Below the pieces are notes generated by a model. That model worked only from the letters and a program-made list of their open reading frames with translations. It was not told where the DNA came from and did not search any database. Positions 2,782-3,848 of a stretch of 64,000 nt of DNA are shown piece by piece. Source of the DNA: Escherichia coli. Its GTDB lineage: Bacteria; Pseudomonadota; Gammaproteobacteria; Enterobacterales; Enterobacteriaceae. The DNA is taken from NCBI RefSeq assembly GCF_024298765.1, contig NZ_CP101210.1. One strand, written 5' to 3'. How positions within the stretch are numbered: position 1 is the stretch's first letter; each line of letters opens with the position of its first letter. A program made the position numbers and the translations under genes.

Positions 2782-3105
2782 ATGGATGCACAAACACGCC
2801 GCCGCGAACGTCGCGCAGAGAAACAGGCTCAATGGAAAGCAGCAAATCCCCTGTTGGTTGGGGTAAGCGCAAAACCAGTTAACCGCCCTATTCTCTCGCT
2901 GAATCGCAAACCGAAATCACGAGTAGAAAGCGCACTGAATCCGATAGACCTTACGGTGCTGGCTGAATACCACGAACAGATTGAAAGCAACCTGCAACGT
3001 ATTGAGCGCAAGAATCAGCGCACATGGTACAGCAAGCCTGGCGAACGCGGCATAACATGCAGAGGACGCCAGAAAATTAAAGGTAAATCTATATCACTTA
3101 TTTAG
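2782..3105 (+). CDS. N: N antitermination protein (107 aa)
   Basis: [57 protein letters not shown]...; arginine-rich motif at N-terminus; the longer ORF from 2704 is the known upstream in-frame extension. Confidence 0.95.
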
Positions 3106-3592
3106 AAAATGCAGATTTAGGGAACAGATAGGAGGCGTTACACCTATGGCATCTCATCCTATGGTTAGAAGGTGGTGCAAATCCTTCGTATTGAAGTATG
3201 GATTTCACAGAAGATTCATAGCATTGAGCGCAAAGATAGTGCATTGGCTGACCGGTATTTGCCGATTTTTTGAGACGATAAACCACCGTAGCAACAGTAG
3301 GTGTATACATCTCATAGTTTTTCTTTTCCTCTTCCCACTTAGAGGCTCGATTTATCTTTTCTTCAAGCTCAATAATCTTGTCCTTAGAAATCATCAAAAG
3401 CTCATTAAGTGACATTTGCTGCTGTTGGGCATCCATGAGCTTATCGACAAGTTCGTATGTTTTTTCTTTTACTGAGTAGTCTATTTGCATTTTCTGGATT
3501 TCCTTTACTGCGCCAACAGCACTCATCAGAGCACCTCCGGCACCAGAAACTGCATCTGTAATCCTACTTATTATTCCTTTTTCATCAGACAT
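3098..3592 (-). CDS. Hypothetical protein with Gly-rich segment, coiled coil and C-terminal CxxC-22-CxxC zinc ribbon; convergent with N at the sieB position
   Basis: ORF 3098..3601 (GTG) with likely ATG at 3592 giving [29 protein letters not shown]...CAQCYESS...CHRCN; AT-rich; start choice uncertain. Confidence 0.6.
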
Positions 3593-3802
3593 ATAAATCA
3601 CTCTCTTACTGTAGGGGTAAGAGGATTTTACTATTTTTCTCGCTGTAGGGGTACACGAGAACCACCGAGCCTGATGTGGTTAAAAGACAGGCATACTAAT
3701 AAACACTGCACTGTGTATTTATTCCAACGAGTGAATACACGGAGCAATGTCGCTCGTAACTAAACAGGAGCCGACTTGTTCTGATTATTGGAAATCTTCT
3801 TT

Positions 3803-3829
3803 GCCCTCCAGTGTGAGGGCGATTTTTTA
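3803..3829 (+). terminator. Rho-independent terminator upstream of ea10 (tL1-like)
   Basis: gccctc-cagtgt-gagggc hairpin followed by gattttttat. Confidence 0.5.
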
Positions 3830-3848
3830 TCTATGAGGATATGAATAG

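Follow-up and report, generated by a model that had tools for sequence, protein, structure and literature searches.

An Escherichia coli prophage gene in the lambda sieB position very probably encodes the anti-phage protein Rip1

The minus-strand reading frame that stands in the place of sieB in a lambda-like prophage of Escherichia coli is very probably the gene for Rip1 (ring interacting pore 1), an anti-phage system of temperate phages that consists of a single protein; taken as a whole, this reading explains the evidence best. The coding sequence (rip1, 3098..3592, minus strand) specifies 164 aa plus stop and lies near the beginning of the window, by which we mean the whole 64-kb stretch of contig NZ_CP101210.1 that was analysed. 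The original prediction, made from the DNA letters, was of an exclusion-type gene in the sieB slot, and it was borne out in that the product is the defence protein Rip1, solved with the T6 small terminase. The gene is already named and structurally solved, and the locus opens no new question. What we add here is a corrected annotation of phage ev099, the sieB slot as a site of cassette exchange, and a catalogue of the contexts in which the family occurs.

Identity of the protein and its reading frame

The protein of the window is identical at 163 of 164 residues to chain L of PDB entry 9oox (phmmer E = 1.4e-105, residues 3-164 aligned), which was released on 2026-02-04 under the title 'Cryo-EM Structure of the Escherichia phage HK446 Rip1 in complex with the Enterobacteria phage T6 small terminase'. 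The sole mismatch is Y96 in the window for H96 in the solved protein, at a position that is variable across the family. A profile built from 144 diverse relatives retrieved the same entry (E = 1.4e-52). In HK446 the rip1 position is that of gp37, beside N as in the window, and window 2748-3828 shares 99.35% DNA identity with this phage (blastn). Among the family databases, PHROGs gave a match to phrog_1244 (E = 4.3e-53), which is labelled 'unknown function', and scans of the window protein with Pfam, NCBIfam and PADLOC 2023 gave no match. According to a meeting report, 12 Rip1 monomers cap the 11-subunit ring of the T6 small terminase, the Rip1 of the Maxwell lab inhibits replication of the incoming phage, and the defence is called pore-based. 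Likewise, a preprint lists Rip1 with TerI among the defences that sense the small terminase subunit (bioRxiv 10.64898/2026.04.30.721860). The trigger of Rip1 is the small terminase of the invader, nothing SieB-like. The string 'rip1' in another, unrelated preprint is the nickname of a phage and was set aside.

A listing of open reading frames gives this frame as 3098..3601 (minus strand) from a GTG, while the start used by the family is the ATG at 3592. All 23 close relatives that we aligned begin with MS(D/E)EKG (MSDEKG or MSEEKG), which places the start at the ATG of 3592 and gives a product of 164 aa. The frame had been described as AT-rich, which is true relative to E. coli (GC 39.6%) but not unusual within the phage arm, where ea10 has 39.3%; the N gene has 49.5%. 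In the minus frame most substitutions hit third codon positions (48 of 62 against the Citrobacter orthologue and 38 of 59 against the Edwardsiella orthologue), so rip1 is a real gene under purifying selection and not a chance reading frame.

On the other strand, an 88-aa frame (3146..3412, plus strand) is annotated as ev099 gp46 (H3V35_gp46) in RefSeq NC_049953.1, and both the RefSeq and the GenBank records of ev099 give this antisense frame and omit rip1. If the plus-strand frame were the real gene, the minus-strand one would be incidental. The plus-strand frame is the only one that RefSeq annotates here, and it is open in the orthologues too. However, the third-position bias belongs to the minus frame, whereas in the plus frame it is codon position 1 that collects the changes, with 18-19 of 89 residues altered. 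For the minus-strand product, moreover, there are thousands of homologues and a solved structure. We find it hardly credible that the plus-strand frame is the gene; judged by these substitution patterns, it is spurious and free of selection, and ev099 is annotated on the wrong strand. Rip1 is found in about 1.8% of complete E. coli genomes, annotated merely as 'hypothetical protein', and is missed in the RefSeq record of the matching phage. The copy of this very recently characterised defence gene in the window looks functional.

The exchanged interval between N and ea10

The gene for antiterminator N of the PL operon (2704..3105, plus strand; a 133-codon frame as annotated for lambda) is convergent with rip1. 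Its region is 93.5% identical to lambda in DNA (blastn), and window 2400-3105 matches lambda as far as the N stop. The two coding sequences overlap tail to tail by 8 bp (3098..3105), an arrangement that is also annotated in HK446 and in vB_EcoP-720R6; a single minus-strand frame overlapping the N stop by 8 bp had been predicted, and the coordinates agree. By the blastn breakpoints, a cassette at 3106..3607 (minus strand) replaces the lambda sieB coding sequence, with no DNA similarity to lambda and 99.35% identity to HK446. It is followed by a block of the sieB type kept from the lambda layout (3608..3693, minus strand; blastn), and then by a junction at 3693..3698 that, in the blastn coordinates, marks the loss of 340 bp of lambda containing orf28 and ral. 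The match to lambda comes back at 98.5% over window 3698-4600, from ea10 onward (blastn). The right-hand boundary of the interval is ea10 itself (3849..4217, plus strand, 122 aa). Just 5' of it, on the strand of the PL operon, a hairpin scan found a terminator-like hairpin with a T-run (3801..3832, plus strand), which is common to the window, lambda and HK446 according to the homology spans. The lambda records J02459 and NC_001416 annotate no terminator and no sieB promoter in the interval, and because they annotate no terminator there we leave the hairpin (3801-3822) without a name.

From the N stop to the ea10 start the window measures 743 bp and lambda 1132 bp, and this difference of 389 bp agrees with the estimate of about 390 bp made beforehand. 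Queries with lambda Ral, orf28 and SieB gave no tblastn match in the whole 64-kb window (best E = 1.2). A Ral-like frame is absent between N and ea10, and lambda Ral alone found nothing below E = 4 by tblastn over the whole window; this null search and the deleted 340 bp uphold the earlier statement that ral is missing. Our comparison confirmed that the sieB coding sequence was replaced exactly, with its upstream block retained. The gene stands where sieB would, at the beginning of the PL operon and pointing towards N.

SieB (PF14163) of lambda and P22 resembles Rip1 in its slot, in its orientation convergent with N and in the block upstream of it. SieB is reportedly a prophage gene product tied to the exclusion of other phages, as described by Ranade and Poteete in 1993. 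One might suppose from the exact position and the retained upstream block that the window protein is a diverged SieB, or a functional equivalent that aborts superinfection by the SieB route. However, BLASTP to lambda SieB gave E = 9.4, and Pfam scans of the protein and of the 144 relatives found no SieB match, nor any Pfam family that covers the Rip1 family; homology to SieB was rejected on these results. The fold in the AlphaFold (AF2) model is a soluble coiled coil with a Zn domain, and there is no architectural similarity to SieB. Moreover, in Citrobacter prophages a PF14163 SieB gene and a Rip1 orthologue are neighbours, which argues for distinct functions. A SieB-like nature of the protein is therefore very improbable, and the prediction that the occupant of the slot would be unlike SieB agrees with the exact exchange of the coding sequence.

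The retained block at 3608-3693 is 87% identical to the sequence just upstream of lambda sieB and includes a 58-nt stretch that is nearly identical to lambda. It is presumed to be the putative promoter or leader of the cassette. Within it, the 10-mer ACCCCTACAG occurs twice on the minus strand, in a proximal copy (3609..3618) and a distal copy (3643..3652) 34 bp apart. These are the only two occurrences in the 64-kb window, both upstream of rip1, with 0.05 expected by chance, and both are conserved upstream of lambda sieB. The terminator and hairpin scan, together with the sequence, further gave a 7-bp perfect inverted repeat, CTCTTAC...GTAAGAG (3602..3624, minus strand), which brackets the proximal ACCCCTACAG and covers the likely ribosome-binding purine run of rip1. 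No equivalent perfect inverted repeat precedes lambda sieB. A consensus scan upstream of rip1 found no convincing sigma-70 promoter, the single match (3597-3570) spanning the start codon. From the sieB slot, the antisense placement to the PL operon and the retained upstream block, we infer that rip1 is made in the lysogen.

The block is present in about 990 of the 5,426 complete E. coli genomes, and full rip1 in 95 of these. The other 890 or so have the block without rip1, and those of them that were sampled carry sieB behind it. In E. coli UTAK-12 (NZ_CP168981.1; 1009-1503 of locus L022, minus strand) the same block precedes a 164-aa protein of the Rip1 family that is only 27% identical to the Rip1 of the window, although the upstream block is 99% identical over about 100 bp. 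Comparison of these two sequences points to allelic diversification at one locus. The lambda sieB position is thus an exchange point for unrelated late-acting abortive defences with a conserved junction, which is useful for annotation and for the mining of further cassettes.

As a tentative and rather doubtful extension, the block with its two ACCCCTACAG copies may be a portable module for control and recombination, which drives expression in the lysogen of swappable abortive-defence cassettes (SieB, Rip1 and the 27%-identical Rip1 allele). In the same conjecture, the invariable antisense placement of Rip1-family genes in lytic operons with strong transcription, namely PL in lambdoids and the late operon in Casadabanviruses, would serve as a switch of self-immunity by convergent transcription, with no need for an anti-Rip1 protein.

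Architecture of Rip1 and its possible mode of action

The AF2 model of Rip1 (pLDDT 84) consists of helices at 4-33 and 39-90 and a beta domain at 93-158, and its top Foldseek match is chain M of the solved complex (9oox_M; TM 0.89, rmsd 1.8 A). Beyond 9oox, Foldseek against the PDB returned SH3-like matches alone, all insignificant (E > 0.4). The first helix (about 4-33) is amphipathic and rich in small residues, and the Gly-rich amphipathic segment that had been noticed in the letters falls at residues 14-29. The predicted coiled-coil middle corresponds to residues 39-90 in the model and is also seen in the solved structure. The beta domain holds C121, C124, C148 and C151. A C-terminal zinc ribbon of the form CxxC-22-CxxC had been proposed; the four-Cys beta domain is there, but the spacing is 23 (CxxC-23-CxxC). 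Among 144 diverse members C121, C124 and C151 are invariant and C148 is conserved at 99%. Conservation is highest in the beta domain (W86, Y93, Y105, H118, K130-Q134 and the four Cys), and the loop between the zinc knuckles (135-147) is hypervariable; we speculate that this loop is a candidate specificity determinant. The full architecture of the Rip1 family, with N-terminal amphipathic helix, coiled coil and two-CxxC beta domain, is thus present in the window protein.

The four Cys, the adjoining and overlapping N gene, and the annotation of a Nun-C-terminal-peptide protein in this neighbourhood in records of phage 434 could together suggest a zinc-ribbon regulator whose target is nucleic acid or N and the transcription machinery, in the manner of Nun-type exclusion. 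On the other hand, the solved partner is a small terminase and not RNA polymerase or nucleic acid, and homologues are present in phages without N, e.g. Casadabanviruses. We regard the chance of such a regulator as negligible.

In the Rip1 reading, the parts of the protein can be assigned provisional roles. Because 124-126 of 164 residues are modelled in 9oox, the four-Cys beta domain and the coiled coil are read as the ordered, ring-bound part, and the N-terminal helix would be the membrane-active part. The lowest pLDDT of the AF2 model is in the N-terminal 30 residues; this, like the partial modelling in 9oox, fits a mobile, membrane-active N-terminus. Across the 144 relatives this helix keeps an alternating pattern of small and hydrophobic residues and conserved K23 and K30. 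Hydrophobicity nowhere reaches the level of a classical transmembrane helix (the highest mean over 18 residues is 0.40, Eisenberg scale), and therefore any pore must come from amphipathic helices. Pore formation itself is suggested by the molecule name given by the depositors and by the meeting report.

A plausible course of events would be as follows. Rip1 would be produced in the lysogen from the sieB slot, as its location implies. Late in infection the invading phage would make its ring-shaped small terminase, and Rip1 monomers would dock onto the ring, which would act as a template on which the coiled coils join in a single assembly. The amphipathic, small-residue helices at the N-terminus, brought together in this way, may form a membrane pore, and the infected cell would be disabled before the release of progeny. 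The lysogen is predicted to resist phages whose small terminase is recognised by Rip1, T6 being the phage of the solved structure.

Alternatively, Rip1 may defend by sequestering or capping the small terminase of the invader, so that DNA packaging fails in a TerI-like block with no membrane pore. In the solved complex Rip1 does cap the terminase ring, the lack of a classical transmembrane segment suits such a role, and a prophage defence that blocks packaging via the terminase complex exists, according to a preprint (bioRxiv 10.1101/2025.02.27.640495). However, the depositors' name says pore, the meeting report calls the mechanism pore-based, and sequestration can hardly explain why the small-residue amphipathic N-terminal helix is conserved family-wide though it is outside the modelled complex. 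We consider sequestration alone unlikely, and the pore remains our preferred mode of action.

The resident prophage may escape its own Rip1 by one or both of two routes. Its lambda-type small terminase may not be recognised, or N-antiterminated transcription from PL, running antisense through rip1, may silence the gene after induction. Such transcription could interfere with rip1, which is encoded on the strand opposite to the PL operon. Beside rip1 in the window we saw no partner gene. Moreover, rip1 is found with a lambda-type N in three types of virion module, namely Radostvirus ev099, Kwaitsingvirus HK446 and Lederbergvirus vB_EcoP-720R6, and this travelling with N across the three modules makes it less likely that the packaging module carries a linked anti-Rip1 gene.

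Family contexts, related systems and the prophage arm

With a cut-off of E <= 0.001 the profile search gave 2,964 representative clusters (50% identity level), and with E <= 1e-10 the number of Rip1-family clusters was 1,387; nearly all members have 140-180 aa. In lambdoid prophages of Serratia and Pantoea the homologue is convergent with N, on metagenomic contigs it comes next after a cI-like repressor gene of the same orientation, and in an E. coli myovirus it is near the repressor. [quoted passage not shown] In Citrobacter prophages (2267-3495, plus strand, of loci L015 and L016) the PF14163 SieB gene and a 92%-identical Rip1 orthologue form a same-strand tandem, with the repressor on one side and the leftward operon on the other. 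SieB and Rip1 defences can thus be stacked and are not solely alternatives. All these contexts are positions from which prophage morons are expressed.

The closest known system is the Rip1 of HK446, which has the same length, position, orientation, 8-bp overlap with N and upstream region as that of the window. The carriers differ, HK446 being HK97-like whereas the window has a lambda-like prophage of the Radostvirus ev099 type, in which the genes downstream are ea10, cIII, kil, gam, bet and exo.

Tab (tail assembly blocker) of Pseudomonas phage JBD26 is, like Rip1, a small single-protein prophage moron antisense to a lytic operon; it has its own promoter and acts late in the cycle of the invader. 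In JBD26 and JBD24 it occupies the same slot between the terminase genes as the Rip1-family genes of JBD30, DMS3 and D3112. Unlike Rip1, however, Tab has the tape measure protein as its target, prevents tail assembly and is paired with a dedicated anti-Tab. Homology between the two is unlikely, as Tab has 83 aa and is described as without similarity to any protein.

The use of a conserved packaging protein of the invader as the signal of infection is shared with Avs1-3 (large terminase) and TerI (small terminase or terminase complex). The Avs proteins, however, belong to the large STAND NTPases, carry enzymatic effectors and bind the large terminase as a monomer, whereas Rip1 has 164 aa and the oligomeric terminase ring itself is the template of assembly.

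The first ~10.5 kb of the window is the left arm of the prophage, leftward on the lambda map, with the gene order cro (minus strand), cI (plus strand), an NYN-domain gene, PL/nutL, N, rip1, ea10, cIII, kil, gam, bet, exo ... int. Over positions 2700-4300 of the window the sequence agrees fully (100%) with that of Escherichia phage ev099 (Radostvirus). The arm ends with a lambda-type integrase of 356 aa (9374-10444, plus strand). The remaining ~53 kb is presumably host chromosome, and therefore the prophage's own terminase genes lie outside the window; ev099 gp01, a small terminase of 181 aa, is the likely counterpart of its small terminase.

Directly downstream of cI, on the same strand and in the place of lambda rexA/rexB, the NYN-domain gene (1443-2300, plus strand) encodes a protein of 285 aa, for which PADLOC gave weak matches alone (HEC-09, E = 2e-4; NYN LabA-like nuclease, E = 1.4e-3). 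It is a second candidate for a defence or RNase gene that the lysogen expresses from a classical exclusion slot.

Downstream of ea10, cIII (4290-4430, plus strand) encodes 46 aa, against 54 aa in lambda, and is followed by kil (4423-4566, plus strand). A short sequence difference accounts for the earlier stop of cIII and also changes residues 3-4 of Kil from QT to KK. The RefSeq record of ev099 has no cIII coding sequence and calls an 89-aa fused 'Kil' frame.
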